Source: an uncultured Anaerolineales bacterium (GTDB taxonomy: Bacteria; Chloroflexota; Anaerolineae; UBA2200). Taken from it: a stretch of DNA of 64,000 nucleotides. Under the pieces are notes generated by a model. It did no database searches. It was not told the origin of the DNA and was given only the letters and a program-made list of their open reading frames with translations. The position numbers and the translations under genes were made by a program. This document shows, piece after piece, positions 8,492 to 64,000 of this stretch. Numbering within the stretch: the stretch's first letter is position 1; each line of letters starts with the position of its first letter. The stretch lies in the NCBI GenBank assembly GCA_964478075.1, contig CAYZGO010000008.1, forward strand, positions 37,284 through 101,283, given 5' to 3'.

Positions 8492-9481
8492 CTACAAGAT
8501 ACAGGGTATGCTTTCCCCGCATGAGGGACACTCGCTCAGAGGCGTCAGAAGATTTCGCCGCATGGTGTACGAGGAACGCTCGATCAGCAGTTGGCCGCAG
8601 GAAGGACAGTATGTGTTCTGGCTGGGGTGACCCTGAACGTTGCCCAGGTAAGGATAGGCCAGCCCTGCCTGTCGTGCGAGGTCATAAGCACGCTCCAACG
8701 TGCTTATCCGGGTGGGAGAAGCACGCATCTGGTGTGCTGGATGGTACCGTGTAAAGTGCAATGGCGTCTCAGAGCCTACAGTTTGCAAGTGACGGGTTAT
8801 CAGATCACGCAGTGCTTCCTGAGAATCATTGACGCCAGTCACCACCAGGTTCACGATCTCCACGTGCAATCCCATCTCTTTGGCCGCAGCCGCCGTCTCC
8901 CAGACCATTTCTCCATGCGAAGCAACACAGTATTCGCGATACACCTGTGCATTACCCTTCACATCAATCTTGATGGCATCCAGGCCTGCAGCTTGCAACT
9001 CCCGCAGGGTATCGAGCGTCATGTAACCATTGGACACATAGCAAGTGTACAACCCAACCGCTTTGGCCAGAGAAAAAGCGGCCAGGTTGTACTCGTGTAG
9101 CAAGGTTGGCTCAGTGAAACTGCAGCAAAGTCCCTGATCGCCAAGATGCAAAGCCATGTCCACCAAATCCTCTGGCGAGACGTACCTGGCCTGGACTTGC
9201 AAAGGGTCTGTGCGGCTCAAGTGCGAGTTCTGGCACCAGCGGCAGCGCAAGTTACATGAGTAGCTGCAGTAGGTAAGGGCAGTGGAGCCGGGGTGAAAGT
9301 GAAAGAAGGGTTTGATCTCTATGGGACGGCTTTCCAGAGCGGCTAACCGCCCGTAGACCACGCTCTGCAGATGCCCATGCACGTTGCGTCTCGTTCGACA
9401 GAAGCCGACATCGCGGGGTTTGATCAAGCAGCCACGGCGGCAGAGAGAGCATTGGAGCACATCCTTAGAAGCGGCACTCAT
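8492..9481 (-). CDS. Radical SAM enzyme (PFL-activase-like; N-terminal Cys-rich motif resembling AmmeMemoRadiSam-type enzymes)
   Basis: CNLRCRWC (CX3CX2C) radical-SAM cluster. N-terminal CSLCRRGCLIKPRDVGFC motif. C-terminal CPSCG...CPSCG zinc-ribbon. Start placed at the ATG (MSAASKD) with a GGAGGT RBS. Confidence 0.75.
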   Translation of the reverse strand: MSAASKDVLQCSLCRRGCLIKPRDVGFCRTRRNVHGHLQSVVYGRLAALESRPIEIKPFFHFHPGSTALTYCSYSCNLRCRWCQNSHLSRTDPLQVQARYVSPEDLVDMALHLGDQGLCCSFTEPTLLHEYNLAAFSLAKAVGLYTCYVSNGYMTLDTLRELQAAGLDAIKIDVKGNAQVYREYCVASHGEMVWETAAAAKEMGLHVEIVNLVVTGVNDSQEALRDLITRHLQTVGSETPLHFTRYHPAHQMRASPTRISTLERAYDLARQAGLAYPYLGNVQGHPSQNTYCPSCGQLLIERSSYTMRRNLLTPLSECPSCGESIPCIL

Positions 9482-9632
9482 GGAGAACCTCCAGAATCGG
9501 CTACAGTATAGTTCATATTCTGACCCTTGTCTATCCACTCAACTATTGCTTGGCGGTTGCGATGTTGCAACTTGACCGGAATGGTGATATAATGTCAGCA
9601 ACGACCTGCAGTTTGAACCGTGAGGAGGGGCC

Positions 9633-10112
9633 GTGGGCGAGCCGGAGAAGCAAGTCATCCGTCAAAAGATTATGGGAGTGCTCTTGCGCCATGCTCGGCT
9701 GAGGGCAGGGAGAAGTCAGGCCGAGTTGGCTGCCGCGCTGCGCATCTCCAGGTATCGCTACGGGCAATACGAGCGCGGACAACGCGACATCTCGCTGCCA
9801 GAGTTGGAGATCGTTGCCGACTTGTGCGGCGTGCCGTTAGGCTACTTCTTTGACGACAGAGCCACAGTGGAGGATGAGGGCACGGATAAGCCCTCCTTGG
9901 TCGCGCTTTGTATCCAGCGCAAGATTGTGGGCACACTACTGCGCCAGGCTCGACGGCAGGCAGGCAAGTCACAGAAAGAGTGTGCCGCTTTGCTGGGCAT
10001 CTCCCAACAACGTGTCTCTCTGTACGAGCGTGGAGAACAGGACATGCCCTCGTCTGAACTCGAGGCCCTGGCCCCCTATCTGAATGTGCAGCCCAGCTAC
10101 TTCGCGGTCTGA
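9633..10112 (+). CDS. Transcriptional regulator with two tandem XRE-type HTH domains
   Basis: Two HTH_3-like repeats (LRHARLRAGRSQAELAAAL... and LRQARRQAGKSQKECAALLGISQQRVSLYERG). GTG start with a GAGGAGGGG RBS. Confidence 0.75.
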   Translation: MGEPEKQVIRQKIMGVLLRHARLRAGRSQAELAAALRISRYRYGQYERGQRDISLPELEIVADLCGVPLGYFFDDRATVEDEGTDKPSLVALCIQRKIVGTLLRQARRQAGKSQKECAALLGISQQRVSLYERGEQDMPSSELEALAPYLNVQPSYFAV

Positions 10113-10175
10113 GCAAGACGGTCAGCGGACTAGGCAGATTGAGCGGATGTCAGTGACTTGTGCACGAAGTAATAG

Positions 10176-10208
10176 AAACGGCCACTGCTGAGGAGCAGTG
10201 GCCGTTTT
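10176..10208. terminator. Bidirectional rho-independent terminator between convergent genes
   Basis: AAACGGCCACTGCTG-AGGAG-CAGTGGCCGTTTT, with an A-tract on one side and a T-tract on the other. Confidence 0.6.
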
Positions 10209-10226
10209 GCTATGGCTGGCAAGTGA

Positions 10227-12293
10227 TCAGCCCTTCTCTTCGTTCTTGCCCTGCTCAATGACGTTCTGTGTGATGTGAGTAGGGACTTCATCGTAACGTT
10301 CGAACTCCATGGTGAAGTAGCCACGGCCCTGTGTCATGGAACGTATGTCGGCAGCGTAGTGCTGCATTTCGGCCAATGGAACCTCGGCGCTGATTATACT
10401 GTTGCCCTTTTGCTGGTCCATGCCCAGGACTCGCGCGCGTTTAGTGTTCAAGTCCCCCAGTATATCGCCCATGAATTGCTCAGGCACAACGATCGTTACT
10501 TTCATGATGGGCTCAAGGAGCACCGGGGCTGCCATCTCCATGCCCTTCTTGAAGGCCAGGTGCGCCGCCAGCTTGAAGGCGATTTCCGAAGAGTCCACCG
10601 AATGGGACGATCCGTCGTAGAGGGCGGCACGCAGGTCGGTAGCGGGGTAGCCAGCCAGCATGCCCTTCGTTATAGCCTCGCGCAGTCCCTTTTCTACAGC
10701 CGGTATAAAGTTCCGTGGCACGTGACCGCCAAAGACCTCGTCCACAAACTCGAAGCCTGCGCCGCGTAGCAGTGGCTCGAATCGTATTCGGACATCACCA
10801 AATTGCCCGCGCCCGCCAGTTTGCTTCTTATGCCGCCCCTGAACCTGGACTGTCTTGGTGATCGTCTCCTTGTACGGCACCTTGGGCACAGAGGTGACAA
10901 CGCCTACACCAAACTTTTGCTGTAGACGCCTGACAGCGATATCAATGTGCGAATCGCCCATGCCCGAAATCACGGTCTCGTTGGTGTCCGCATCGCGGCG
11001 TACAATGAGTGTGGGATCCTCTTCCACCAGTCGTGCCAGGGCGGTGCCCATCTTGTCCAGGTCGGCCTTGGTCTTGGGACTGATAGCAGCGAAGGCTATG
11101 GGATGCGGAAAGACAATACCTGGCAGTACGATAGGATGGTCTTTGTCGCACAGTGTGTTGCCAGTGGTCGTGGCTTGCAGCTTGGCCACCGCACCAATGT
11201 CTCCAGCGATCACGTCCTTGGTTGGTGTCTGCTCCTTTCCAAGCAGGAAGAAAAGCTGGCCGATCCGTTCTTCTTCACCCTTGTTTGCATTTAAAACACG
11301 TGAATCGCTCTGGAGACTACCGGAGTAGACACGGAAGTAGGTGAGCTTGCCTACATAGGGGTCGGCCATGGTCTTGAAGACCAGAGCAGCCAGGGGGCCT
11401 GTCGGTGCGGCCACGACGGCTTCCTCGCTGTTATCCAGCACCTTCCTGGCTTTTGCCTCCGTGGCGGCTGGCGAGGGCAGGTAGCGCACGATGGCATCCT
11501 GCAGAAACGAGACGCCTATATTCTGAGTCGCAGAGCCGCACAGCACCGGCACGACTTTGCCAGAGGCCACGGCCATGGCTAGCCCACGGCAGATTTCATC
11601 CTCGCTGAGCTCTTCACCGTCGAGGTATCTCATGATCAACTCGTCGTCAGCCTCAGCGGCTAGCTCTACCATCTGTAGTCGCAGGGTCTGTGCTTGATCC
11701 TGTAACTCGGCCGGGACTTCGCTTCCCTTCTTTGCATCGCCGAGGTAGGCTTTCATCGTCAAGAGGTCTACCACGCCCTTAAAGTTGGCCTGGGAACCAA
11801 TGGGCAATTGCAAAGGCACAAAGTTGACATCGAATTTGGCTTTCATCTGCTCAAGAGTGCGTTGAAAGCTGGCATTTTCGCGATCCAGCTTGTTGATGAA
11901 AGCCATGCGTGGCAACTCTAGTTCGTCGGCATACTGCCATACCAACTCGGTGCCTACTTCAACACCTGATGCTGCGCACAGGACAACAATCACAGCGTCA
12001 GAAACGCGAATGGCCCCCTTAACTTCGCCTACAAAGTCAGCATAGCCAGGAGTGTCCAACAGGTTCACCTTGTGCCTCTCCCACTCCCAAGGGGTGACCG
12101 ATGCGTTCACCGAAATCTTGCGCCGGACCTCTTCCGGGTCGTAGTCGGAGACAGTGTTGCCTTCCTCAACCCTGCCAAGGCGATTGATTAGGCCAGCATT
12201 GTATAGCATAGCTTCGGTCAGGGAAGTCTTGCCCACCCCACTATGGGCGATGAGGCTGACGTTCCTCAGTTCCTCCACCGTGTAACTTTTCAT
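10227..12293 (-). CDS. Elongation factor G family GTPase (EF-G paralog)
   Basis: AHSGVGKTS G1 motif, EF-G domain order, about 690 aa. Start placed at the ATG (MKSYTVEEL) with an AGGAGGG RBS. The track's TTG at 12338 gives a 15-aa extension. Confidence 0.85.
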   Translation of the reverse strand: MKSYTVEELRNVSLIAHSGVGKTSLTEAMLYNAGLINRLGRVEEGNTVSDYDPEEVRRKISVNASVTPWEWERHKVNLLDTPGYADFVGEVKGAIRVSDAVIVVLCAASGVEVGTELVWQYADELELPRMAFINKLDRENASFQRTLEQMKAKFDVNFVPLQLPIGSQANFKGVVDLLTMKAYLGDAKKGSEVPAELQDQAQTLRLQMVELAAEADDELIMRYLDGEELSEDEICRGLAMAVASGKVVPVLCGSATQNIGVSFLQDAIVRYLPSPAATEAKARKVLDNSEEAVVAAPTGPLAALVFKTMADPYVGKLTYFRVYSGSLQSDSRVLNANKGEEERIGQLFFLLGKEQTPTKDVIAGDIGAVAKLQATTTGNTLCDKDHPIVLPGIVFPHPIAFAAISPKTKADLDKMGTALARLVEEDPTLIVRRDADTNETVISGMGDSHIDIAVRRLQQKFGVGVVTSVPKVPYKETITKTVQVQGRHKKQTGGRGQFGDVRIRFEPLLRGAGFEFVDEVFGGHVPRNFIPAVEKGLREAITKGMLAGYPATDLRAALYDGSSHSVDSSEIAFKLAAHLAFKKGMEMAAPVLLEPIMKVTIVVPEQFMGDILGDLNTKRARVLGMDQQKGNSIISAEVPLAEMQHYAADIRSMTQGRGYFTMEFERYDEVPTHITQNVIEQGKNEEKG

Positions 12294-12817
12294 CTGCCCT
12301 CCTGTGACCGATATAGTGGTTCGTGCATAGATTGCCAAACGTGTCTCACCGGATCATCGTATGAGAGGGGGAGCTTGAGTTTGGCAATCCGGTCGAGCGC
12401 CGTTCGTCGCGAGCGACGCCGTTCGCCCCGCAGGGGGGCGACCTCTCGTCTTTGTCGAGAGACAAAGGAGACACCCTGACGGGGAAGATGCTACGCGCGG
12501 ACGAACGGTTGACGCGGTACCTTGTAAGAACGCCCTGCAGAGTGACACGATGCCAGGGCGCACACTTTCAACGACGAGGCTATTGTATAACAGAACCGCA
12601 CAAATGTCAATTGAATTCCGTTTGCGGGTGCAGTTCACTTCTCGGGCGAACCCCCCTGGAGTCTCAGAAAACATGCTGAACGCCCTCCCGGAAGGCTTGG
12701 AAGGCGTTGTCGGCAGCGTCTGGGAGGGTCTGCTTGCCAAGGTGGCCCTTGTCCGATTGACAAAGGTCAGCGTTGTACGGATAATGTAGCCCAAAGATCA
12801 CTGATGAGGCGAGCCAC

Positions 12818-13924
12818 ATGATTCTTGGAACCCAGGGTAAGGGACAAAGCGAGGGGGGACTGAACCGCAGGGACTTTTTGCGGATGACGGCGGGGATGGC
12901 TATCGCCCTGCTGCTGCCAGGTTGTCGGCGCATTCCGCCATCTCAAGCGCCCTTGCCAACGCATACTGGCTTGCTAGAGACAGAGCGCTACAGAAAGAAG
13001 AGTCCGTGGAGGATCGGGCGCTCTGGCCGCGGTGATGTCACTTCCTGGATGGTCATGTTGAGCGCACACATTGAGTACGGCATCAAGGAGAAGTACAGAG
13101 ACCGCTTCAAAGACTACTTCTGTACCTCGGCCAACTGGGACCCCAACAAGCAGATCGAGGATATCAAGATCCTGCTGGCGGAGGGGATTGATCTGCTCCT
13201 GATTGACCCCATGGATCACGCAGTAGTCGCGGCGGGAGTGGAGGAGGCCATGAACGCCAGTGTCCCTGTCATCCTGGCCTCCACCAGGGTGCAGAGCACT
13301 CAGTATGTCAGTTGGGTGACCACAAACGAAGAAGAGCGCGGCGCTGCTTGTGCAGACTGGCTCTGCCGCTCCATCGCTGGTGGGCGTGTGGTTGTCGTTG
13401 TGAACATGCCTGCTAGTGGCGACAGCAAGGCGTGGTTGGTGGGAGTTCGTGGTCGGCTGGATGCCCAGCCTGAAGTGCAAGAAGTGACGGTGGCACACTG
13501 CCCTTGGTCATCACCTGGTGCCAGGCAGACTATGGCCTCCATGCTCAACGAATCTACGCAAATAGACGGTGTGGTTGTGAACAACGGGGTGCTGGGCCGG
13601 GGAGTAGTCGAGGCTTTCGCGGAACGAGGCAGCAGGATTCCGCCCATTGCCGGAGGCGATGACTGGAACGGTTGGCTGCGTACCGCAAAGGAACACAAGG
13701 TACGCTTCATGGGGCTCAGCGGGGGGGCGAATCTGGGTCTACGCTGCGTTGACCTGGCAATCCGAGTGCTGGCCGGCGACCCCGTTCCGCGCTGTGTGGA
13801 ATTCCCGTACGAGGTATTCGATGAGAGCACGTTAGACCGCTACTATCGCCCCGACTTGAGTGACCATTATTGGGCAGTCAACGACCTGCCTGAGGCATGG
13901 ATTCAAAGGATGTTCAAGTTGTGA
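12818..13924 (+). CDS. Periplasmic sugar-binding protein (PBP type I) with a Tat signal
   Basis: RRDFLRMTAGMAIALLLPGC twin-arginine/lipobox-like N-terminus and a ribose-binding-protein-like fold. Consensus-like promoter TTGACA-N17-GATAAT upstream. Confidence 0.7.
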   Translation: MILGTQGKGQSEGGLNRRDFLRMTAGMAIALLLPGCRRIPPSQAPLPTHTGLLETERYRKKSPWRIGRSGRGDVTSWMVMLSAHIEYGIKEKYRDRFKDYFCTSANWDPNKQIEDIKILLAEGIDLLLIDPMDHAVVAAGVEEAMNASVPVILASTRVQSTQYVSWVTTNEEERGAACADWLCRSIAGGRVVVVVNMPASGDSKAWLVGVRGRLDAQPEVQEVTVAHCPWSSPGARQTMASMLNESTQIDGVVVNNGVLGRGVVEAFAERGSRIPPIAGGDDWNGWLRTAKEHKVRFMGLSGGANLGLRCVDLAIRVLAGDPVPRCVEFPYEVFDESTLDRYYRPDLSDHYWAVNDLPEAWIQRMFKL

Positions 13925-22263: not shown

Positions 22264-22937
22264 GGTCAGGGAGCACCAGCTTGCTTTTGGCCATTGACAC
22301 AGCGACGCGTATTGCAGGCATAGCGCTCTACGACCAGGATGGCCTGCGCATAGAGCAGATGTGGCGCACAGGGAACAACCATACAGTGGAGTTGATGCCG
22401 CGTATCGTGCGCGCCTGTGAGCAGCAGGGCCTGGCTCCTTCAGCATTGGGAGCAGTAGCTGTTTCGCTCGGTCCTGGCTCTTTCACTGGCCTGCGCGTTG
22501 GCCTCAGCGTGGCCAAAGGACTGGCACTAGCGCTGAACATTCCTTTGCTGGGCGTACCAACTCTTGATGCCAGTGCCTACGCTCACTCCCGTGAACTTTT
22601 GCCTGTCTGTGCCGTCCTGCAAGCGGGTCGGGGAAGGCTATGTGTCGCCTTTTATCAGAGAATCGGCGGTGACTGGCAACGCCGCAGTGACTATGTTTTG
22701 ATGAGCCCTGACAGCTTGGCAGCCTCCCTGAAGGAGCCGACGTTCATCTGTGGCGAGATTGACCTTCATCTGGCCGAGGCATTGCGTACAGCCGCTCCCG
22801 AGCAAGCCATTGTCGCTAGGCCAGCTTCCGCCCTCCGGCGCGTGGGTTACCTGGCGGAATTAGCCTGGCAGCGATTCGTTGCTGGGGAATACGATGCCCC
22901 GGCCTCGCTGACGCCTATCTACCTGCAGCGTGCGTGA
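22260..22937 (+). CDS. tsaB: tRNA threonylcarbamoyladenosine biosynthesis protein TsaB
   Basis: LLLAIDTATRIAGIALYD N-terminus of YeaZ/TsaB. Its GTG overlaps the tsaE TGA (GTGA). Confidence 0.8.
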   Translation: MRSGSTSLLLAIDTATRIAGIALYDQDGLRIEQMWRTGNNHTVELMPRIVRACEQQGLAPSALGAVAVSLGPGSFTGLRVGLSVAKGLALALNIPLLGVPTLDASAYAHSRELLPVCAVLQAGRGRLCVAFYQRIGGDWQRRSDYVLMSPDSLAASLKEPTFICGEIDLHLAEALRTAAPEQAIVARPASALRRVGYLAELAWQRFVAGEYDAPASLTPIYLQRA

Positions 22938-22941
22938 ACCA

Positions 22942-23607
22942 ATGTCGGGAATGAGCACTAACAAGAATCCCTATATTGTGGAGAAAATGACCCTCGATGA
23001 CGTACCTGCCGTAGCTGCTATTGAGCAGATGGTGTTTCCTTTGCCTTGGTCTGTTCATGCCTTTGAGCATGAACTGCGATACAATTCTACGGGTCACTTC
23101 GTGGTAGTCCGGCTACGACAGCATAGTGCTGTTGGGAAGAAGACGGTCAGCCTGAGAAGAAACCCAAAGAGGGAGCCAAAACAAGGACCGACACCTCGTC
23201 TAGTCCTTGGCTATGGCGGGTTCTGGCTCCTCCTCGATGAGGCACACATTTGTACGCTGGCAGTGCATCCTGGATGGCGGGGCCGTGGCCTTGGCGAGTT
23301 GCTGTTAACTAGCTTGATTGACCACGCCACAGAGCTACATGTAGCGGTCATGACCTTGGAAGTACGTGCATCCAATCTGGGGGCACAGAAGCTGTACCGG
23401 AAATACGGCTTTGTCAGAGTAGGCTTGCACAAAGGGTACTACTCGGACAATCACGAAGATGCTCTAATCATGGGCACTGAACACATATCGTCAGCAGCCT
23501 TTCAAGGGCGCTTTCAGGCGCTCAAGGCTTCACTTTGGCCAAGACTGGCTGCAGGTGGTTTCAGTATGCAAGTAGACTATCAAGTCACGGAGACACGAAG
23601 AAGATAA
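22942..23607 (+). CDS. rimI: Ribosomal-protein-alanine N-acetyltransferase RimI-like GNAT with an internal basic insert and a C-terminal extension
   Basis: MTLDDVPAVAAIEQMVFPLPWS and GRGLGELLL acetyl-CoA motif. There is an unusual roughly 40-aa K/R-rich insert (RLRQHSAVGKKTVSLRRNPKREPKQGPTPR). Start is ambiguous. Confidence 0.65.
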   Translation: MSGMSTNKNPYIVEKMTLDDVPAVAAIEQMVFPLPWSVHAFEHELRYNSTGHFVVVRLRQHSAVGKKTVSLRRNPKREPKQGPTPRLVLGYGGFWLLLDEAHICTLAVHPGWRGRGLGELLLTSLIDHATELHVAVMTLEVRASNLGAQKLYRKYGFVRVGLHKGYYSDNHEDALIMGTEHISSAAFQGRFQALKASLWPRLAAGGFSMQVDYQVTETRRR

Positions 23608-33842: not shown

Positions 33843-36692
33843 ATGGGCCGTACCTATGTCGCCCTGGACATCGAGACTACTGGTCTGGATGTAGCGCGGG
33901 ATGCTATCATCGAAGTCGCTGCTGTAAGATTTCGCGATAGCGAAGTACTGGATAGCTGGTCCACTCTGGTTGACCCGAAACGTCCCCTGCCTTACAAGAT
34001 ACAGTTGCTCACAGGCATCAAACCCCAAGATGTGCGGCACGCGCCCGCAATTGCTGCTGTCACTGCCCCACTTGCCAGGTTCGTCCGTGATTGCACTATC
34101 GTCGGGCACACTGTGGGCTTTGACCTGGCCTTCCTCAGGAAACACGGCATCTTGCTAAGGAATGCCAGGATTGATACTTATGCATTGGCCAGCATTCTGC
34201 TGCCAGAAGCCACTCGTTACAGCCTGGCTGCTCTTCTGGACGTCCTGGGTATCGAACTGAAGAATGGCCACCGTGCCCTGGCCGATGCCCTGGCAGCAAA
34301 AGACCTCTTTCTGGCCCTTGTTGATCGCGGGCTGCAGATGGATCTCGCCGTATTGCAAGCGATCAACCGCGTGGCTGCCAATAGCCATTGGCCGCTACGG
34401 CAGTTCTTTCGCGATCTTGAACGCGAGCAGGCGCGCACAGCTTCCATCGGCAACATACGTGAACAACTTCTGGGCAAAGGGGATCTGGATAGTGCCGCGC
34501 TGGGTCTGGTGATGGATCGGAGGGAGCAGCTAGAACCGCTGTGTCCGACAGCTACCATAAACTTGCTCGATGAGCGAACCCTGGTCGCCATGCTATCGCC
34601 TGGAGGATTGTTGGCAGAGCGCTTTGCGGGGTATGAATACCGTCCCCAACAGGTAGATATGCTAAGGGCAGTCACACAGGCCTACAATGAGGGGCAACAG
34701 CTCCTGGTAGAAGCCGGTACGGGCACTGGCAAGTCCATCGCCTACTTGCTGCCCGCTATTCACTTTGCTGTACGCAATGGCCGACCCGTGGTTGTATCCA
34801 CCAACACGATCAACTTGCAGGATCAACTTTTCAACAAAGACATCCCTGACCTGAAGAGAATACTACCCTTTGACTTCAGGGCGACACTGCTCAAGGGACG
34901 CAGTAACTATCTCTGCCTGCGTCGGCTGGCCATCTTCAGGCGCAGGGAATCCCTGGAGGCAGATGAAGTGCAAGTGTTGGCCAAGATTCTGGCCTGGCTT
35001 CCTGTTACCGAGACCGGCGACCGTGCAGAGTTGTCGCTTCGCGAGCGAGAACTTGCCGTGTGGAGCAAGGTACAGGCGGAGCAGGAGACCTGTCTGGGTG
35101 ATCGTTGCCCGCACCGCAGGAAGGGCCGCTGCTTCCTGTATCGGGCGCGCCGCAGTGCACAGGGTGCCCATGTCATCGTGGTGAACCACGCCTTGCTACT
35201 GTCAGATATGTTGGTCTCCAACAGGGTCTTGCCCGAGTACCACCATCTGATCATTGACGAAGCGCACCACCTTGAGGCCCGTGCTACGGAGCAGTCAGGC
35301 TTTGCTGTGAACCGAAGCCAGGCTTATTCTCTCCTGGCGGGCCTCGCTCAGCGGACGGCCACAGGTCAATACAGGGGATTCCTGCCTGGGATCCCACGGC
35401 ATCTCCGCGGCAGCGCAGTGGCGGCAGAAACCCAGAAGCAGGTCAACGTGTACCTGGCCAAACTGCAGACTCAGGTTGAACAGGCCCCAAGGGCCATGGA
35501 CAGCTTCTTCGATGGCCTGTTCCTTTTCGTTAATGAGACCTTGATGTCAGAGTCACGGCGGGTCAACACTGCCTATGATCGCCAGATCGAACTGACCACT
35601 GGCGTGAGGATTCAACCCGGCTGGTCTGAAATCGAGATACTTGCAGATGATCTGGACAGTGCATTGCTCAAAGTCGAGCAGGGTCTGCAGGGCCTGCACG
35701 GCGGCTTCTCTGATCTGGAAGATCAGGACATTCCGAACTATGACGATTTGCTGCAGGGGATTTGGGCTCGTTTAGAGCGTGTGAGGGAGTTACGGGAGCA
35801 GTTGCGAGTTATCATCACTCAGCCGGTGTCAGCCGGCATCTACTGGCTTAGCATAGGGGCTAGAGATAACGAGATTACATTGCATTCCGCACCTCTGCAC
35901 GTGGGACAATTGCTGACGCAGAACCTGTTCTCCAGGTTAGAGATGGTGGTTCTCACTTCGGCAACCCTGCGCACAGCCAACGGCTTTGGCTACATTCGTG
36001 AACGTCTGGGGTTAGAGGATGCTGAGGAATTAGCAGTGGGTTCTCCGTTCGATTACTCTAGTTCTACACTGCTCTACCTGCCCACTGACATTCCGGAGCC
36101 CGCTCGGCCAAACTACCAGAACATAGTATCCAAGGCCACTACTGACTTGTGTCTGGCCACGGGAGGGCGGACACTGATTCTTTTCACTTCCCATAGGCAG
36201 TTGCAAGCAACATACCGCGCCATCACCAGGCCGCTGGAAGAAGCGGGCATCGTTGTTTACGGCCAGGGATTAGATGGATCGCGGCGGCAGTTACTCGAGA
36301 GTTTCAAGACTATTGCCCGTTCAGTGTTGCTAGGCACGAGGAGTTTCTGGGAAGGCATTGACGTTGTCGGCCCCGCTCTCAGTTGCCTGGTCATTGTCCG
36401 CCTGCCTTTCTCCGTGCCGTCTGACCCTGTTTTCGCGGCACGTAGCAGGACCTTCGAGGATCCCTTTGGGCAATATGCGGTGCCTGAGGCGGTGCTACGC
36501 TTTCGGCAAGGATTTGGCCGCTTGATCCGGAGTTGCACTGATCGTGGTGTCGTCGTTGTGCTCGACAAACGCGTCCTTAGCAAAAGCTACGGCTCGTCCT
36601 TCCTTGACTCTCTGCCAGATTGTACGGTATACCGTGGTCCGATCAGTAGTCTACCCGCGAGGGCTGCACGCTGGATTGAGGAAGAGCTCTAG
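33843..36692 (+). CDS. dinG: DinG-family ATP-dependent helicase with an N-terminal DnaQ-like 3'-5' exonuclease domain
   Basis: DIETTGLD (Exo I) at the N-terminus; Walker A GTGKS; DEAHH box; 949 aa. Same architecture as Bacillus DinG. Confidence 0.88.
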   Translation: MGRTYVALDIETTGLDVARDAIIEVAAVRFRDSEVLDSWSTLVDPKRPLPYKIQLLTGIKPQDVRHAPAIAAVTAPLARFVRDCTIVGHTVGFDLAFLRKHGILLRNARIDTYALASILLPEATRYSLAALLDVLGIELKNGHRALADALAAKDLFLALVDRGLQMDLAVLQAINRVAANSHWPLRQFFRDLEREQARTASIGNIREQLLGKGDLDSAALGLVMDRREQLEPLCPTATINLLDERTLVAMLSPGGLLAERFAGYEYRPQQVDMLRAVTQAYNEGQQLLVEAGTGTGKSIAYLLPAIHFAVRNGRPVVVSTNTINLQDQLFNKDIPDLKRILPFDFRATLLKGRSNYLCLRRLAIFRRRESLEADEVQVLAKILAWLPVTETGDRAELSLRERELAVWSKVQAEQETCLGDRCPHRRKGRCFLYRARRSAQGAHVIVVNHALLLSDMLVSNRVLPEYHHLIIDEAHHLEARATEQSGFAVNRSQAYSLLAGLAQRTATGQYRGFLPGIPRHLRGSAVAAETQKQVNVYLAKLQTQVEQAPRAMDSFFDGLFLFVNETLMSESRRVNTAYDRQIELTTGVRIQPGWSEIEILADDLDSALLKVEQGLQGLHGGFSDLEDQDIPNYDDLLQGIWARLERVRELREQLRVIITQPVSAGIYWLSIGARDNEITLHSAPLHVGQLLTQNLFSRLEMVVLTSATLRTANGFGYIRERLGLEDAEELAVGSPFDYSSSTLLYLPTDIPEPARPNYQNIVSKATTDLCLATGGRTLILFTSHRQLQATYRAITRPLEEAGIVVYGQGLDGSRRQLLESFKTIARSVLLGTRSFWEGIDVVGPALSCLVIVRLPFSVPSDPVFAARSRTFEDPFGQYAVPEAVLRFRQGFGRLIRSCTDRGVVVVLDKRVLSKSYGSSFLDSLPDCTVYRGPISSLPARAARWIEEEL

Positions 36693-36705
36693 AAGGAAGC
36701 GCACT

Positions 36706-37167
36706 CTAAAGTGCCGCAACTGGGACTGTGTCAGATTGAACCGGTGGCGGAGGCGGGACTTGGGCTGGGGTACGGTCGTTAGTCAGCTTCCACGAGATGA
36801 GTTCCAGCATGGTAATCAATTGAAACGGTTTGAGGATAACCGGGGCGCCGGTGGCGTTCAAGAAACGTTGCGTCGCCAAATTGGCAATATCCCCGGTGCA
36901 GAAGATAACCCGCTTGCTCAAACCAGGATACGAACTGCACAGTTGACGATAGAATGCCTCCCCACCCATAACTGGCATTCTGATGTTAGTGATAATCAAG
37001 ACATAGTCCTGAAGAGACACTTTCTCCAGGGCCACTTGGCCGTTGCTAGCCATGTCAACATCATACCCTGCGATTCTCAGCACACGAGCCAGGATATCGA
37101 GGATATCCTGCTCATCGTCAACGATAAGGATTTTGCTTGGCACGGATGCACGGCTGGATTCACTCAT
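36706..37167 (-). CDS. Stand-alone response-regulator receiver (REC) domain protein with a Pro-rich C-terminal tail
   Basis: ILIVDDEQDILDIL...DYVLIITNIRMPVMGGEAF CheY-like fold residues. No output domain. Tail PAQVPPPPPVQSDT. GAAGGA RBS. Confidence 0.8.
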   Translation of the reverse strand: MSESSRASVPSKILIVDDEQDILDILARVLRIAGYDVDMASNGQVALEKVSLQDYVLIITNIRMPVMGGEAFYRQLCSSYPGLSKRVIFCTGDIANLATQRFLNATGAPVILKPFQLITMLELISWKLTNDRTPAQVPPPPPVQSDTVPVAAL

Positions 37168-37192
37168 TGATCTGATCCTTCAACGGCCTCGG

Positions 37193-37408
37193 CTAGAACC
37201 ACTCGACTTCGTGTTCGTTCATCCACACAATAAGCTGCTCAGCGAACTGCTCGATGGTCGCAGCCCTTATAGCTGCAATGCCCCCGAGTTCGTTGGCTTC
37301 CAGGTTGAATTGAGCGAGCGCCCTCTTTGGGTTGTTCAAGAGTGTGCTACGGAAGCCATCATCAATGACTGCTGTGCCAATGATCTGAGAGAGAGATGCG
37401 GTCGTCAT
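37193..37408 (-). CDS. Small protein (71 aa) with an NHLP/Nif11-like leader-type N-terminal segment
   Basis: DDGFRSTLLNNPKRALAQ resembles the nitrile-hydratase-leader-peptide family motif (D-AFR-RLLADPKAVLAE) as I recall it. ELGG precedes a 26-aa C-terminal segment with no Cys. AAGGAG RBS. Confidence 0.6.
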   Translation of the reverse strand: MTTASLSQIIGTAVIDDGFRSTLLNNPKRALAQFNLEANELGGIAAIRAATIEQFAEQLIVWMNEHEVEWF

Positions 37409-37422
37409 CGTCCACTCCTTTC

Positions 37423-38037
37423 CTATGAGCTGTGTTTACTTTTGGATATGCTCTCTGTAGGACCAGCAGGTGAATGCTGCCCCAGCATAGCGCTTTGTAT
37501 GAGAAAGAAGGCTCCCAGAGCAACGAGCACGTCGCCAACGCTGAAGACACTAGGCACAGGAAAGGGTCTGGGCAGCACAAAAACATCAGATAAAAGCCAC
37601 AGCTTTGTCTCTTGTGGCGATAGGAGCATGTTTTTGCTGCTGTAGATGCGCATACCGGATGCCAGAGATGGTACGAGACCGGCATGTCCCACTTTGATGA
37701 GGGCCTCCGGTGTAATGGGCATCCAGCCACCATTGGTGACCATCACTACGAGATTCAGCAGCAGGCCCAGCCCGATTAGCCTCACGCCCTCAAGATGGCG
37801 GTTGGCCCACACTGTAACCAACAGGAGCAGGTGGGAGCCCACGAAAATCAACTCTTGCCAGCCCCAGACGCCGATAGCCTTGCGTGAAGGTGTCTGGTAA
37901 ATGAAAAGTGCCTGGGCAGCAAACGCTACCACCGCAAGTGCACCACAACACAGTGGCACCGCTGCCAGTCCGTTGAATCGTCCACCTCGTAGCAATCCAA
38001 TGACGATCGAAACGACAATGGCAGCTACAAGGATCAT
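37423..38037 (-). CDS. Integral membrane protein (4-5 TM; NGGWMPI motif; possibly DUF5317-like)
   Basis: Hydrophobicity pattern; no catalytic motifs recognised. Family assignment is from memory only. Confidence 0.55.
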   Translation of the reverse strand: MILVAAIVVSIVIGLLRGGRFNGLAAVPLCCGALAVVAFAAQALFIYQTPSRKAIGVWGWQELIFVGSHLLLLVTVWANRHLEGVRLIGLGLLLNLVVMVTNGGWMPITPEALIKVGHAGLVPSLASGMRIYSSKNMLLSPQETKLWLLSDVFVLPRPFPVPSVFSVGDVLVALGAFFLIQSAMLGQHSPAGPTESISKSKHSS

Positions 38038-38090
38038 CTTAGATCGAGTCTACCAGATAATCCTATCGGAATACCAAGTGCAGGCAAGGC

Positions 38091-38234
38091 CTAGGGGCCG
38101 GCTGGGCCGCCACCGCCAAAGCACTCAGGAGCACCGCTGCCGAGCACCAGCGCCGTGATGACCAACAGGGCCCAAATCAGACGCACAGTGTTGGCGCTCG
38201 TGAATTTGCAGACTGTAGGTAGCCACTTCTTCAT
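38091..38234 (-). CDS. Unannotated small membrane peptide (47 aa): MKKWLPTVCKFTSANTVRLIWALLVITALVLGSGAPECFGGGGPAGP
   Basis: Not in the ORF track (under 60 aa). ATG preceded by a strong RBS GAGGAGAGG at 4-nt spacing. Single TM helix, Gly-rich tail, two Cys. Lies 53 nt upstream of the membrane-protein gene. Coordinates are hand-indexed. Confidence 0.5.
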   Translation of the reverse strand: MKKWLPTVCKFTSANTVRLIWALLVITALVLGSGAPECFGGGGPAGP

Positions 38235-38432
38235 TTGTCCTCTCCTCTCTTGTTGCTGGCTGCATAGTTACCCACATAGATTGCGCAGCTATCATTTATA
38301 CGTAAATTATAACACAGCCTGCTTTCGGAAGTGCTTACATAGGTGCTTACGAGAGGCCGCTAGAATAGAAAGAGGGCCACCACGTAGGTAAGCCCTCTTT
38401 GCTGCCTAGATGCACGAGCCAAGCACGACGTG

Positions 38433-41400
38433 CTAGCCTGGTGCGATCTTGTCCTGCAGGATTTGCTCATAGAGTGCGGTGGTCTCCAGGGCCGGGTCGG
38501 CTCCGAGTTCCTTTTCCAGGAGTTCGGCAAGCTGATGGTAGCTCCTGAGAGCTGCGTTGCGCTCGCCCAGCAGCGTCTGGCAGAGCATGATTTCTCTGTG
38601 TGCGCTTTCCTGGTAGCTGTCCTTTTCCACCACCTTCTCATAGAAGCGCATCGCTTCCCGGTAATCTCCTTGGGCGACGTAGTATTCCCCTAGGCGCTGC
38701 AAAGCCAAGAGGCACTTCTGGAGCAAGTCCTCCCTCTTAAACAGGCACCACTCAGGACTTGCCGCAGGGGCCTCAAGGAAATCCCCCCGATACAGGACTA
38801 CCGCGTCCTTGTAGTGTTGTATGGTCTTGGAGCGGTCAGTGGTCCAGGCCGATGTCGCCTTATTGATGGCTTCCTCGAACTCCTCCACGTCGAACCAGTA
38901 GTTGATACGACGATTGAAGAAATAGTGATCGTCCTCGTATTCGACACAATCTTGTTGAGCGAGAGCCCGGCGAAGTCGGTAGAGCGCCACGTGGAACGAA
39001 GACCGCAACTTGGCTGGCGATAACTCCGGCCACAGATCGTTGCCAATCTGATCCTTGCGGCGCTGCTTATGGCACAAAAGGTAGAAGAGGAGCTCTTTTG
39101 ACTTGGCCATGCCCCACTCGGCGTTCGTAACCAGCTTATCTCCCCTCAAGACCCTGCTTTCACCGAAGGCATAAACGCGCAAGAGAGGCTGAACGGCGGC
39201 GGGTTCTTGTTGGGCCAAGACTTCTGAACCAGGTGCAGCGGGAGCTGCTACTTTGCGCAAGAGGTGACCGATGAGAGTATCACCCATGCCTCTGGCCGTA
39301 GCGTATTCCATCACCAGCTTCGTCTCCCTGACTGCTGGCAGGAGAAACTGGTCGTAGCCCAGTTCTAGTAGGCAGTCCAGTAGTGCTTGTATGCAGTCGA
39401 GTGCTTCCTGAAACCGGCCAGCGACATAGTAAGCCTGTGCCAGATAGAGGGTCGCTTTGGCTAATTCTCTCTTCGCGTCGCTGCGCACAAAGATATCGCG
39501 GGCCTGCGACAGGTATTGCTCTGCCTGTCTGATATTACCTTGCTGGTAGCTGATGACTCCCAACGAAATCTGATACAGCCCCATTTCATAAGCAGAGTCC
39601 CGTTCTTGCGCCCTCTCGTAGGCTTGACGCACAAAGTCAATCGCCAGAGCATCGTTGCCCATCAGCCGATGTGTATTGCCAATGGCATCCAGTAGATAAC
39701 AGATGATGAAAGCTTCTCTCGACTGTCGCGCTGCCTGTAGTCCTTCTTCGTAGGCTTTGAGGGCTTCTTCGTATGCGCCCTGATCTCTGTGGATATCGCC
39801 AATGCCAGCCAGGATGAAGGCCGTGACGCGATCCAGGCCTGCCTTTCGTGCCTGATTAAGACCATCCTCGTAGAGCTGGAGGGCCTCAGCGTACTCGCCG
39901 CGGTAGTAGTGGCCGACAGCGATGTTGTTGATAATCAATGCCACTAATCCTACGTTTCCTTTCTCTTTCCAGATTTCGAGCGCTTGACGAAAGTGCAGTT
40001 CGGACCCTGCCAGATTGCCGGCAAGTCGAAGGATAACCCCGAGTTGGTTGTGCACGTAACCGATATTGTTTACGTATCCCATCTGCTCGTACATGCTGAG
40101 TGCACGCCGCAATTCCTCCTCGCCTTCGGACAGATTGCCCAGACGCGCCTGGCAGGTACCAATCTGGGTGTGAGCGGATGCAACAACTTGCATAACGTCC
40201 GTCTGTTCCTTGGCACCCTGTACAAGCGAGATAGCCTGCTTGCACGCGTCTATGGCCTCTCTGAACTCGCCCTGAAAGCGTAGGACAGCGCTCTTCTCTA
40301 CCAGTGTTTGGGCCTGTCCCAGATGATCGCCACGGTGAGCAAATTCGGTGTATGCGCGGTCAAAGAGAGCGGCCGCCTGGTCCAACTCGCCAACCTCGGC
40401 ATGTATCTTGGCCCTGAACCACAACAGGCGCGGCCTGACCTGTACCATGTCCGGAGGCAATGCGTCTATCCAATATGCCAGGGTTTCTAGCTTGCCAGTG
40501 TCATAGGTCTCCCGAGCTATCTCCAGTATGGCTTTCACAGCGCTGTCGTAGTCTTTGCCCGTCAGGTAGTGTTGTATGGCTTTCTCAACTGCGCCACTTT
40601 CATGCAGCAGCCTGGCGGCGCGCAGGTGCAATGGGCGAACTTGTTTTGGCTTTCCTTCCTGGAGTTTGGTCAGAAGAAACTCGTGGAACAGATGGTGATA
40701 CCTATACCATCTTTCCTCTTCCCTCTCCAGCCTGCTAACAAACAGGATTTTCTCCTCCAGCAGCTTCAGCGTCTCCCGAGAGTTGCTTACTCCGAGGAGT
40801 TCGTCACACAGCAGAGGGCTCATCTCCTCGAGTATGGAAGTGGACATCAGGAAATCTCGCAAGGTAGGAGGTTGCTGGCTGAACACTTCGTTGGCCAGGT
40901 AGTCATAGACCTTGCTGTCAGAGCCTTGAATACGGATGATGCCCTCGAAGAGGCCCTTCCACATTGTGTGCGTGGTTAGCAAGATGCCGGTGATCCAGCC
41001 TTCTGATTTCTCGGCAAGCTCCTTGGCTGCTTCGTCTGGAAGGCGCTGGCCATAGTTCTGCAGGAGCAGCGCCTGAATCTCCTCAGGGGTGAATCTCAAG
41101 TCCTCAACGCCCAGCCCTGCGATCTCCTGGCGGGCAGTGAGTAACGCCAGTCCACGAGGGGTCAGTGTAGGGACCGTGCGACTGGAGATAATAAAGTGGC
41201 AGTTCTCAGGCAGGTGCTGGACCAAAGCATCCAGCATCAGGTTGACTGCCCGGCTGTTATCAACGAGGTGATAGTCATCAATCACTACGACAAAGTAATC
41301 AGGGATCGTCTCGTAAATCTCATTGACGAGAGAGCCAACGAGCAATGTAGGATCAGATAGTTCTTCGCCAGCCTGAAGCAGCCTTCGAGAGCTCTGCCCG

Positions 41401-41684
41401 AACTTGGGGAAATGCTGGCTGATGGCAGCAATTAGATAGTCCAAGAAGACGCGCGGGTCGCGAGCGGACTCAACAATGGAAAGCCAGCACACGGGCAGGT
41501 CGGTATCGTAGGCATAATCAATGAGCAAAGACGTCTTGCCATAGCCGGCCGCGGCCGAAATGAGCAATAGCTTTCGGTCAATGTGCTCGTGTACAAAGTC
41601 AACGAGCCGTGGCCGATGCAGCAGATTGGCGCGCTTCCTAGGAGTAAGTATTTGAGTTATGATCAACTGGGGAGGGGTGGCCAT
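38433..41684 (-). CDS. Large STAND-type NTPase regulator: N-terminal AAA/NB-ARC-like ATPase, central TPR array, C-terminal SARP-type winged-helix plus BTAD domain
   Basis: ISAAAGYGKTSLL P-loop near the N-terminus. Multiple TPR-like repeats in the middle. The C-terminus (RVYAFGESRVLRGDKLV...ELLFYLL...YRGDFL) is an OmpR-like wHTH plus bacterial transcriptional activator domain. Terminator hairpin AAGAGGGC...GCCCTCTT downstream. Confidence 0.8.
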   Translation of the reverse strand: MATPPQLIITQILTPRKRANLLHRPRLVDFVHEHIDRKLLLISAAAGYGKTSLLIDYAYDTDLPVCWLSIVESARDPRVFLDYLIAAISQHFPKFGQSSRRLLQAGEELSDPTLLVGSLVNEIYETIPDYFVVVIDDYHLVDNSRAVNLMLDALVQHLPENCHFIISSRTVPTLTPRGLALLTARQEIAGLGVEDLRFTPEEIQALLLQNYGQRLPDEAAKELAEKSEGWITGILLTTHTMWKGLFEGIIRIQGSDSKVYDYLANEVFSQQPPTLRDFLMSTSILEEMSPLLCDELLGVSNSRETLKLLEEKILFVSRLEREEERWYRYHHLFHEFLLTKLQEGKPKQVRPLHLRAARLLHESGAVEKAIQHYLTGKDYDSAVKAILEIARETYDTGKLETLAYWIDALPPDMVQVRPRLLWFRAKIHAEVGELDQAAALFDRAYTEFAHRGDHLGQAQTLVEKSAVLRFQGEFREAIDACKQAISLVQGAKEQTDVMQVVASAHTQIGTCQARLGNLSEGEEELRRALSMYEQMGYVNNIGYVHNQLGVILRLAGNLAGSELHFRQALEIWKEKGNVGLVALIINNIAVGHYYRGEYAEALQLYEDGLNQARKAGLDRVTAFILAGIGDIHRDQGAYEEALKAYEEGLQAARQSREAFIICYLLDAIGNTHRLMGNDALAIDFVRQAYERAQERDSAYEMGLYQISLGVISYQQGNIRQAEQYLSQARDIFVRSDAKRELAKATLYLAQAYYVAGRFQEALDCIQALLDCLLELGYDQFLLPAVRETKLVMEYATARGMGDTLIGHLLRKVAAPAAPGSEVLAQQEPAAVQPLLRVYAFGESRVLRGDKLVTNAEWGMAKSKELLFYLLCHKQRRKDQIGNDLWPELSPAKLRSSFHVALYRLRRALAQQDCVEYEDDHYFFNRRINYWFDVEEFEEAINKATSAWTTDRSKTIQHYKDAVVLYRGDFLEAPAASPEWCLFKREDLLQKCLLALQRLGEYYVAQGDYREAMRFYEKVVEKDSYQESAHREIMLCQTLLGERNAALRSYHQLAELLEKELGADPALETTALYEQILQDKIAPG

Positions 41685-41693
41685 ATCCCTTGT

Positions 41694-41710
41694 TTGTCAA
41701 TGTGTGACAA
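41694..41710. promoter_or_regulatory. Palindromic operator-like site TTGTCA-ATGTG-TGACAA between the regulator's -10 region and its start codon
   Basis: Perfect 6-bp inverted arms, 10-26 nt upstream of the regulator ATG. Confidence 0.35.
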
Positions 41711-41790
41711 GTGTTTGATGTTACTCTCCTATGATTATAACACAGTACTTTGGCAAAAGCCAGTGAGCAGGCACTCTAGAAAACGGCAAA

Positions 41791-41818
41791 TTGACATGCC
41801 GCTCCATTGTCTTATAAT
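41791..41818 (+). promoter_or_regulatory. Consensus sigma-70 promoter for the DUF2085 gene (TTGACA-N16-TATAAT)
   Basis: Exact -35 and -10 hexamers. This places the track's alternative start at 41807 inside the promoter. Confidence 0.55.
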
Positions 41819-41827
41819 GCGAACACC

Positions 41828-42565
41828 GTGGAATCCCCCTTCTTGCAGGCACATGGTCTACTTAGATGCATTGGACTGTTTCTGAGCGGCGTCTGCGGTC
41901 AGTTGCCAGAGCACTCGATTTCTCTCGCTGGTGTGCAGACCCCATTATGTGCACGCTGTACGGGGACCTATCTGGGAGCATTGCTGGGGTTGTGTAACTT
42001 CTGGCTAAGAGGTCGTTCCCGTGCTAGCCGGCTGCCGCCAGCGAGAATGCTGGCCGTGCTGGGCCTGTTCTTTGTCTTTTGGGTCATAGATGGTCTAAAT
42101 TCCTATCTACACTTCTTTCCTGGCGCCCCGTGTCTTTATTCCCCTAGCAACTTACTGCGGCTGACAGCGGGTATGCTTAATGGAGTGTCCTTGAGCTTTC
42201 TGGTTTTCCCCATGTTCAATTTCACCCTTTGGCGAGAGCCAAGCAAACAACGTGTCGTAGACAGCTTTGGGGAACTGGGAAGGATCTTGGTGCAGGTCAT
42301 AGGACTCGAGATCCTGTTGCAAGCCCGCATAGGGGCACTGCTCTATCCCTTGTTCCTTGTGGACATTATGAGTGTTCTGTTGGTGCTCACCATAGTGAAC
42401 AGCATGATAGTGGTCATTCTTCTACGTTGGGAGAATCGTACTGAGGGCTGGACGCAGGCGCTGCTTCCTCTCAGTCTGGGGTTCTTGCTCTCAGTTGCCG
42501 AGGTAGGGGGCATTGCCTTGCTCCGGGCCGTGCTAGGGGGTGCCCTTGCGTCACCAAGTGGGTGA
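41828..42565 (+). CDS. DUF2085-family membrane protein (CxxxC...CARCTG motif)
   Basis: GVCGQLPEHS...PLCARCTGTYLG matches the DUF2085 signature. Start uncertain (GTG at 41828 or TTG at 41843) because the track start lies inside the promoter. Confidence 0.6.
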   Translation: MESPFLQAHGLLRCIGLFLSGVCGQLPEHSISLAGVQTPLCARCTGTYLGALLGLCNFWLRGRSRASRLPPARMLAVLGLFFVFWVIDGLNSYLHFFPGAPCLYSPSNLLRLTAGMLNGVSLSFLVFPMFNFTLWREPSKQRVVDSFGELGRILVQVIGLEILLQARIGALLYPLFLVDIMSVLLVLTIVNSMIVVILLRWENRTEGWTQALLPLSLGFLLSVAEVGGIALLRAVLGGALASPSG

Positions 42566-63872: not shown

Positions 63873-64000
63873 GAACGCAAAGGCCCGCTTGGGGTTGTTT
63901 ATCAAAAAGCTGTCAATATCTTCTTCTGCTATCCCTTCCTCTCTTAACCGGGGGATGAATCTTTCCAGAATATATACATATCCAGGCCCTCCACCATATG
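63873..64000 (-). CDS. 3' end of a gene whose C-terminus resembles the amidohydrolase superfamily (phosphotriesterase/TatD-like); the gene continues beyond the window
   Basis: Frame reading ...GYVYILERFIPRLREEGIAEEDIDSFLINNPKRAFAF, then a stop at about 63870. Confidence 0.35.

Follow-up and report, generated by a model that had tools for sequence, protein, structure and literature searches.

Introduction

Os1348 of Pseudomonas sp. Os17 is an 85-residue, six-helix protein that forms a homodimer (PDB 6LK7), and a role as a modified antibiotic precursor has been proposed for it, though not proven (PMC7726476). It is controlled by the Gac/Rsm system and linked to antibiotic activity, and its gene adjoins genes for a GNAT, a HEXXH peptidase and a SagB-type dehydrogenase (PMC7726476). 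Here, we describe a small protein of the same family, encoded by a gene of 71 codons in 64,000 nucleotides of DNA from an uncultured Anaerolineales bacterium (Chloroflexota; contig CAYZGO010000008.1, positions 37,284 to 101,283). We refer to this whole stretch as the window, and all coordinates are positions within it unless a related locus is named. In our judgement, the protein is probably a stand-alone, non-precursor component of a regulator-controlled gene cassette.

The 'LigA-like' X-group of ECOD holds Frankia_peptide, Nif11, ComX, DurB and NHase_alpha, and its three-helix motif also occurs in non-precursor proteins, including LigA and the regulatory subunit TglI (PMC12353581). For the regulatory side of the locus there is a precedent in AfsR, a STAND-SARP protein (SARP-NOD-TPR) that directly activates the small-protein gene afsS (PMC10936776). 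A published rule for the targets of SARP regulators is that direct repeats are spaced by 11 or 22 bp and that 8 bp separate the 3' repeat from the -10 element (PMC10936776).

A small and strongly conserved gene

The gene lies at 37193..37408 on the minus strand, starts with ATG and has 71 codons plus a stop, giving the product MTTASLSQIIGTAVIDDGFRSTLLNNPKRALAQFNLEANELGGIAAIRAATIEQFAEQLIVWMNEHEVEWF (71 aa). A preliminary description, made from the DNA and its open reading frames (ORFs) alone, had placed the ORF at exactly this position, and both strings it quoted (DDGFRSTLLNNPKRALAQ and ELGG) are found in the protein. A Shine-Dalgarno sequence (AAGGAG) lies 7 nt 5' of the ATG. In a large protein database, the protein has 67 clusters of homologues with 68-100% identity, nearly all of them 69-72 aa long. 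The named relatives are all from Anaerolineae/Chloroflexota, and an identical protein is present in an Anaerolineae metagenome-assembled genome (GCA_034430235.1). The ratio of nonsynonymous to synonymous substitution rates (dN/dS), calculated pairwise for eight orthologues, was about 0.07 over the whole gene, an approximate value given the saturated dS.

The Shine-Dalgarno sequence, the homologues, the low dN/dS and a match to a curated hidden Markov model (HMM; see below) together show that the ORF is more than a product of chance; the gene is real and its conservation strong. Its small size (71 aa), and an overlapping ORF of 200 aa on the opposite strand (37043..37645, plus), might raise the suspicion of a chance open frame or of a functionless, decaying remnant. 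However, it is this plus-strand ORF that is spurious; it covers three conserved minus-strand genes (the small gene itself and its two neighbours, for a receiver and a DUF5317 protein), two of which have Pfam domains (DUF5317 and Response_reg). Against a chance origin also stand the strength of the Shine-Dalgarno sequence, the constant length across the 67 clusters, the dN/dS of 0.07 (with saturated dS), the curated HMM match and the operon position, which is kept across lineages. These conservation data effectively refute the idea, and its probability is negligible.

Membership in the NHLP clan

In NCBIfam, the protein scored 49 bits, above the cutoff of 40, on NF038399 ('Os1348 family NHLP clan protein'; residues 6-59, E=4.7e-13). 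The same model was matched by 36/36 diverse relatives tested, and some orthologues already carry its name in NCBI records. The NHLP clan membership suggested in the preliminary description thus holds, but not in the strict sense, as the HMM comparison it called for shows. The classical NHLP leader model TIGR03793 scored 20.1 bits, below its cutoff of 50.9 and with residues 7-34 alone aligned; TIGR04509 scored 21.5 bits (cutoff 34); and no Nif11 model (TIGR03798, PF07862) was matched in NCBIfam or Pfam at E<=10. By the grounds for refutation named in the preliminary description itself, neither a classical NHLP leader nor a Nif11 assignment is tenable.

Frankia_peptide (PF14407) reached 40.1 bits with hmmscan against a gathering threshold of 48, and is listed in the precomputed protein-database annotation of the small protein and nearly all its homologues. 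There were faint Pfam matches to DurB-like and NHase_alpha, and none to ComX (PF05952) at E<=10. By these sequence comparisons, the protein is a member of the NHLP clan, family NF038399, and probably of PF14407, which ECOD places in its LigA-like group. An exhaustive profile search brought up 719 representatives (E<=0.001), with matches that extend over residues 1-65; the entire protein is therefore the conserved domain. Some of the matches (P0073, P0096 and P0107) are multi-domain relatives; one protein of 451 aa carries two copies of the domain, and one of 153 aa is a tandem duplicate. A protein of 406 aa has four NHLP-like repeats and, at its end, AGG with a Gly/Tyr-rich tail; it resembles a true proteusin-type precursor.

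The protein is acidic, lacks a signal peptide, is probably cytoplasmic and is all-helical in its AlphaFold2 model, which has five helices, the last at residues 52-70 (pLDDT 79, pTM 0.60). Foldseek searches of the PDB returned as top matches 6LK7, SonA (a borosin precursor), the N-terminus of the nitrile hydratase alpha subunit and 8TB1 (a proteusin precursor). These all belong to the NHLP clan but are not significant, the best being 6LK7 (E=0.63, TM 0.49, ~18% identity). Compared with the sequence of 6LK7, the profile of the small-protein family gave E=0.014.

No core, no conserved cleavage site and no tailoring enzymes nearby

The preliminary description left two alternatives for the protein, a stand-alone domain protein or a precursor with its tailoring enzymes encoded elsewhere, and pointed to a Gly-Gly (ELGG) and a C-terminal region of 26 residues. 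The Gly-Gly does not stand as a cleavage motif; it occurs in only 1/67 homologue clusters, while 37 have Arg-Asp at the same position and the rest KD, RA, RS or SD. The region that follows is 28 residues long rather than 26 (residues 44-71), and it is indeed poor in the residues expected of a core, with no Cys, no Ser and one Thr. It does not behave like a core in other respects either. It is part of the conserved domain (family profile, residues 1-65) and contains the predicted helix (52-70), and residues E53, Q54, F55, A56, E57, L59 and W62 are invariant or nearly so. At codons 52-65, dN/dS is 0.07, the same as at codons 1-35 (0.07). A fair degree of constraint (dN/dS=0.34) remains at the last six residues in the clade of 71-aa proteins, in which the penultimate Trp is nearly invariant.

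Across the family, the C-terminal tails are short (a median of 11 residues beyond the model), rich in G, P, S and R, and contain 0.8% Cys. Judged by residue content, this composition is disorder-like and not that of a lanthipeptide or thiazole core. Enrichment in Trp or Cys was considered as a ComX- or lanthipeptide-like signature of the tails, but is unconvincing; Trp makes up 1.8% of the tails vs 1.1% of the domain and occurs in 35/155 tails, with Cys at the 0.8% already given.

We also looked for tailoring enzymes, with a Pfam scan of all window ORFs of 150 aa or more and an inspection of the surroundings (+-7-10 kb) of related loci. In the window, no YcaO, LanB/C/M, SagB, ATP-grasp, SPASM radical-SAM or C39 ABC transporter was found among these ORFs, nor a polyprenyl-synthase-like gene, in agreement with the earlier remark that no modifying enzymes are nearby. 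Within +-7 kb of independent related loci there was no recognised enzyme for RiPPs (peptides made on the ribosome, then post-translationally modified), and ~20 independent loci lacked any known tailoring enzyme, ComQ-like prenyltransferase or C39 exporter. The neighbours typical of Os1348 (GNAT, HEXXH peptidase and SagB-type dehydrogenase) are missing from the operon; elsewhere in the window, too, there is neither a HEXXH peptidase nor a SagB-type dehydrogenase, and only a single GNAT (22930..23607). This gene adjoins genes of the TsaE and TsaD families of tRNA modification, and with such neighbours it looks like a housekeeping acetyltransferase.

The Pfam scan of the window brought up housekeeping and metabolic proteins, among them DnaK/DnaJ/GrpE/HrcA, PrmA, RsmE, a DinG-like helicase, DnaN, EF-G, glycosyltransferases, a phosphotransferase system (PTS) and amidohydrolases. 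The gene next to that for EF-G (8492..9538, minus) encodes a generic radical-SAM protein of 348 aa, with a match to Pfam Radical_SAM only and none to SPASM; it is 28 kb away, and nothing ties it to the small protein. One related locus has a ThiF-family gene ~4.7 kb downstream.

No paralogue of the small protein was found in the window. The sole tblastn match (63876-63935, E=0.028) was rejected as due to chance; it arises from the string 'NNPKRA' at the C-terminus of an unrelated protein, whose gene (63876..64000, minus) runs past the end of the window and terminates in ...EEDIDSFLINNPKRAFAF*.

These results bear directly on the possibility that the small protein is a RiPP or pheromone-type precursor after all, with an NHLP-like leader and a tail (...NEHEVEWF) that is released or modified, either by enzymes encoded at an unlinked site or by the DUF5317 membrane protein encoded next to it. 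The prototype of the family, Os1348, was itself proposed as a modified precursor; the domain is conserved while the tails past residue ~65 vary in length and sequence; and the near-invariant penultimate Trp recalls ComX, a pheromone precursor modified at Trp that belongs to the same ECOD X-group. However, there is no conserved cleavage motif, the tails are Cys-poor, disorder-like and often absent, and in the window clade the last six residues are fairly constrained, with the predicted helix reaching residue 70. The lack of paralogous precursors in the window, and of a known tailoring enzyme, ComQ-like prenyltransferase or C39 exporter in the ~20 loci, also argues against a precursor, which we regard as unlikely here.

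A conserved cassette with a STAND/TPR-SARP regulator

The small gene is the third in an operon of four genes on the minus strand, preceded by a micro-ORF (38091..38234, 47 aa) and a gene for a multi-pass membrane protein with a DUF5317 domain (37423..38037, 204 aa; PF17248, E=2.7e-35), and followed by a gene for a receiver-only response regulator (36706..37167, 153 aa; PF00072, E=8.7e-19). The intergenic gaps are 53, 14 and 25 nt. Upstream of the operon, also on the minus strand, a gene at 38433..41684 encodes a MalT-like STAND/TPR-SARP regulator of 1083 aa. Its N-terminal ~550 residues match MalT (NF003420, residues 7-552, E=1.3e-79); the ATPase is followed by TPR sensor repeats and then by a C-terminal SARP module, composed of an OmpR-type winged helix and BTAD (PF03704, residues 931-1076), with a BagI/FevR SARP match over residues 866-1081. 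A role of this protein in anti-phage defence, as in Avs-like STAND proteins, was considered and rejected; PADLOC gives only a generic TPR match, and a DNA-binding SARP module serves as effector.

To see how far this arrangement is conserved, we compared related loci. The genome scan for these used a relatively narrow alignment (A3), as a very diverse one (A2) had no conserved stretch, and one archaeal 'relative' (L020) was discarded as a wrong-frame match inside a thiD-like kinase gene. In close relatives, the gene arrangement is identical. More informative are the distant relatives, with 35-58% identity and unrelated outer flanks. The regulator gene adjoins the small gene in every locus with enough flanking sequence (L015-L019, L021-L029, L031, L032 and L035), though in L025 it is convergent, and this adjacency holds at 35-45% identity with unrelated flanking genes. 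In most lineages, and in 13/13 additional metagenome loci, the small gene has the DUF5317 gene directly upstream, but the latter is missing in L018, L019, L025, L026 and L028. What lies 3' of the small gene varies; often it is a receiver gene, and elsewhere a gene for a REC-PAS-HD-GYP protein, for a GAF-histidine kinase or for an MFS transporter. Only the regulator and the micro-ORF co-occur with the small gene in essentially all lineages.

The non-precursor reading rests on several observations taken together: membership in the family, constraint over the full length of the protein, the absence of a core, of a conserved Gly-Gly and of tailoring enzymes, the conserved linkage to the regulator, the micro-ORF and DUF5317, and a conserved repeat promoter (see below). 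With a full-length domain but neither core nor enzymes, the stand-alone domain protein is the one of the two original alternatives that we favour.

A putative SARP box in front of the operon

Between the regulator gene and the operon, we found direct repeats with a 12-bp period (38319..38350, minus). They consist of two copies of GTAAGCAC (38350..38343 and 38338..38331) and a degenerate third copy, GAAAGCAG (38326..38319), and are followed 7 nt 3' of the third repeat by the -10 hexamer TATAAT (38306..38311, minus). The word GTAAGCAC is found at just these two places in the 64-kb window. The region therefore has the features of a SARP promoter, namely repeats spaced by one turn, 7 nt to TATAAT and an adjacent gene for a regulator with winged helix and BTAD, and by analogy with characterised targets we interpret the repeats as a putative SARP box in place of a -35 element. 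A scan for sigma-70 consensus promoters gave no -35/-10 pair before the operon, as expected if activator repeats replace the -35 element. With these repeats at the promoter and the SARP module encoded immediately upstream, the regulator most likely activates the operon directly.

Such repeats stand before the operon in nearly all lineages. Equivalent repeats, in two to three copies with a period of 11-12 bp, were found at the same place in several related loci (L004, L005, L006, L008, L024, L026, L027 and L029). Degenerate or variant words occur in L016, L017, L018, L021 and L028, including lineage-specific ones such as GTGAGTG in L021 and GTGTCATA in L028. In related loci, the last repeat ends 7-8 nt before a -10-like hexamer. 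Operator-like equivalents can be seen in the intergenic regions of L004-L009, L016-L018, L021, L024 and L026-L029, and the repeat word shifts by lineage, as would be expected for co-evolution with the regulator.

On the 3' side of the stop codon of the regulator gene, the sequence reads as a terminator-like hairpin (AAAGAGGGC...GCCCTCTTT) with a T-rich stretch (38369..38400, minus), which would separate the transcript of the regulator from that of the downstream operon. GC-rich hairpins are present at the matching position in L006, L008 and L029, although the window hairpin is absent from the list produced by the consensus scan. We also asked whether the leader of the operon holds a riboswitch or another RNA element, but no Rfam family was matched in 36000-42000.

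The other genes of the cassette

The micro-ORF is the first gene of the operon and has a Shine-Dalgarno sequence of the GAGGAG type. Orthologous ORFs with the same build are present in nearly every related locus, even where the genes next to them share no more than ~35% identity; Pfam and NCBIfam gave no match. This unannotated family consists of proteins of 35-47 aa with a basic N-terminus, one hydrophobic helix, the motif [A/G][A/S]GAPxx[F/W] (GSGAPxxF in the window) and an oligo-Gly C-terminus; the window protein ends in ...ALVLGSGAPECFGGGGPAGP, and one from a distant clade in ...LVLASGAPVAFSGTGGGG. Copies elsewhere include L004:5191-5328, L026:6842-6985 and L029:6243-6371, and there are tandem pairs in L021 (6038-6145 and 6195-6302) and L035 (~4233-4319 and ~4380-4466). 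The product may serve as a small membrane subunit, or be a pro-peptide that is exported.

The layout of the cassette recalls RRNPP receptor/propeptide pairs and the gene orders agrB-agrD-agrC-agrA and comQXPA. One may imagine the five genes as a peptide-based, quorum-sensing-like circuit for cell-cell signalling, new for Anaerolineae/Chloroflexota, in which the micro-ORF product would be processed and exported (possibly with the help of the DUF5317 protein), sensed by the TPR repeats of the regulator and auto-induced through the SARP box. The NHLP-clan protein would then be an accessory factor, for example one that chaperones or recognises the micro-peptide or that modulates the receptor, with its leader-like domain repurposed in trans. 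The position of the micro-ORF directly 3' of the gene for the TPR regulator in nearly every lineage, its conserved C-terminal peptide and its tandem copies in some loci fit such a circuit, as does the repeat promoter, which would give positive feedback. LigA-like domains, such as that of TglI, also act as peptide-recognition subunits. However, the case is purely architectural. No signal-peptidase site could be validated in the micro-protein, where by our own reading of the sequence a Pro follows the best -3/-1 site; no oligopeptide permease or exporter is linked to the cassette; no homology to RRNPP, Agr or Com components was detected; and the micro-ORF product could be a plain small membrane subunit of the DUF5317 protein. 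We therefore think such a circuit improbable.

The DUF5317 gene is tightly linked to the small gene, with its stop codon 14 nt 5' of the ATG in the window and a 4-nt overlap between the genes in L006 and L008 (6001-6004). The protein has invariant polar and charged residues in or near its membrane helices: Q42, W77-x-N79-R80, N95, N102-G-G-x-M-P, K135, S150-D151 and G168-D169. This conservation pattern hints at a catalytic or transport function. If the small protein were a precursor, this could be the activity that processes it, since residues such as N79, R80, N95, NGGxMP, K135, SD151 and GD169 are compatible with catalysis and the genes are so closely linked. Arguing against this, the five lineages named above that lack the DUF5317 gene keep the small gene, and the AlphaFold2 model of the DUF5317 protein (pLDDT 79, pTM 0.76) has no structural analogue among known enzymes, or anywhere in the PDB (Foldseek). 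There was likewise no weaker match in Pfam, NCBIfam or PADLOC. An assignment as a known intramembrane protease or transporter was rejected, as Foldseek gave no analogue, and one as a GxGD-type aspartyl protease has nothing in its favour beyond the motif (SD151, GD169).

The receiver protein of the window has Asn at the position of D57 in CheY (IITNIRMP), but keeps the acidic pocket (DD), the Thr and the Lys-Pro. In the alignment to CheY, this phospho-acceptor position is also Asn in L004, L015, L016 and L018, while L006 and L008 have Asp there. Near the receiver gene of the window there is no histidine kinase gene, and the substitution suggests a role independent of phosphorylation.

In some related loci, HD-GYP proteins (HD_5) are linked to DUF5317. 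Locus L029 has a second HD-GYP and DUF5317 pair (9898-13205), followed by a ThiF-family gene, and in L024 (7387-8784) and L027 (7330-8784) the REC-PAS-HD-GYP gene lies right 3' of the small gene. This linkage suggests a tie between the cassette and cyclic-di-GMP signalling. On the other side of the regulator gene and divergent from it, a gene for a DUF2085 membrane protein (41807..42565, plus) keeps its position in L004, L005, L006, L010 and L013, but not in distant relatives, and is probably there by synteny only.

Discussion

Taken together with what is known of SARP regulators, the locus suggests a simple course of events. The STAND/TPR-SARP regulator would sense a signal, bind the GTAAGCAC repeats and switch on the operon. 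The small, acidic, helical protein would then bind another protein through its LigA-like three-helix motif, the same motif by which RiPP leaders dock their partners, possibly as a dimer like Os1348, and would thus serve as a subunit or adaptor of a signalling cassette. The most parsimonious partner may be the TPR sensor of the regulator, giving feedback, since the regulator is the only large protein that co-occurs with the small protein in every lineage. The DUF5317 protein would come second, as its gene is tightly spaced or overlapping with the small gene. Our confidence in any specific partner is much lower than in the stand-alone, non-precursor role as such.

Several points weigh against this interpretation. 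Activation of the operon by the regulator, binding as the mode of action of the small protein, and the identity of its partner are things we infer rather than see directly. For the prototype Os1348, a precursor role with modification by the products of the neighbouring GNAT, HEXXH and SagB-type genes has been proposed (PMC7726476), so that precursor function would exist in the family, and the structural likeness of the small protein to Os1348 is statistically non-significant (Foldseek E=0.63). The tails of relatives are variable, a pattern also seen in RiPP precursors. As for the operator, the repeat period is 12 bp here and not the canonical 11 bp, and the SARP module is C-terminal, unlike in characterised SARPs, so the SARP target rule is carried over by analogy.

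How does the locus compare with described systems? The small protein and Os1348 belong to the same family (NF038399), are both small and, going by the predicted model of the former, all-helical, and both lack classical NHLP motifs. However, the window protein lacks the neighbours of Os1348 and has hardly any tail, and its links are to a STAND-SARP regulator, a micro-ORF, DUF5317 and a receiver. With the NHLP/Nif11 leaders of proteusins, thiazole/oxazole-modified microcins and lanthipeptides, it shares the ECOD X-group, and its N-terminal helix-turn-helix (xxIIxxAxxDxxFRxxLLxNPxxAL) resembles the NHLP leader and the N-terminus of the nitrile hydratase alpha subunit. Unlike these leaders, it is present in a single copy and comes without a conserved GG/GA site, a Cys/Ser/Thr core, or a cyclodehydratase, radical-SAM enzyme, LanM or C39 ABC transporter.

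The regulatory part is closest to afsR-afsS of Streptomyces, which likewise combines a regulator with SARP, NOD/STAND and TPR parts, a small-protein gene, and repeats over the -35 region ~8 bp from the -10 element. In the window, the domain order is reversed (MalT-like ATPase, TPR, then SARP), the repeats recur every 12 bp, and the target comprises four genes in one operon. The small protein has no relation to AfsS, and the organism is a member of the Anaerolineae (Chloroflexota) and not an actinomycete. The order of a membrane or processing protein, a small protein and a two-component element also resembles that of ComX in comQXPA and AgrD in agrBDCA, though by analogy only. ComX shares its ECOD X-group with PF14407, and the penultimate Trp is conserved in the window clade, but the window has no ComQ prenyltransferase, no homology to AgrB and no histidine kinase, and its receiver lacks the phospho-acceptor Asp. 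HMM comparisons gave no similarity of window proteins to ComX or to AgrD/AgrB.

The family itself is already curated, but we did not find its core-less variant in a conserved regulatory cassette described in the literature. In the papers searched there was nothing on DUF5317 or Franean1_4349, and those on PF14407 make no mention of the cassette.

These findings matter first for genome mining. Proteins of PF14407/NF038399 are routinely annotated and mined as RiPP precursors, and one relative of the small protein is named 'Franean1_4349 family RiPP'. Here, a sizeable Chloroflexota clade of this family has no core, cleavage site or tailoring enzymes, which calls for caution about false positives in such searches. 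The linkage also gives DUF5317 its first conserved functional partners. Finally, the STAND-SARP regulator forms, with its probable operator and the operon that it probably controls, a compact, testable module in a poorly studied phylum.

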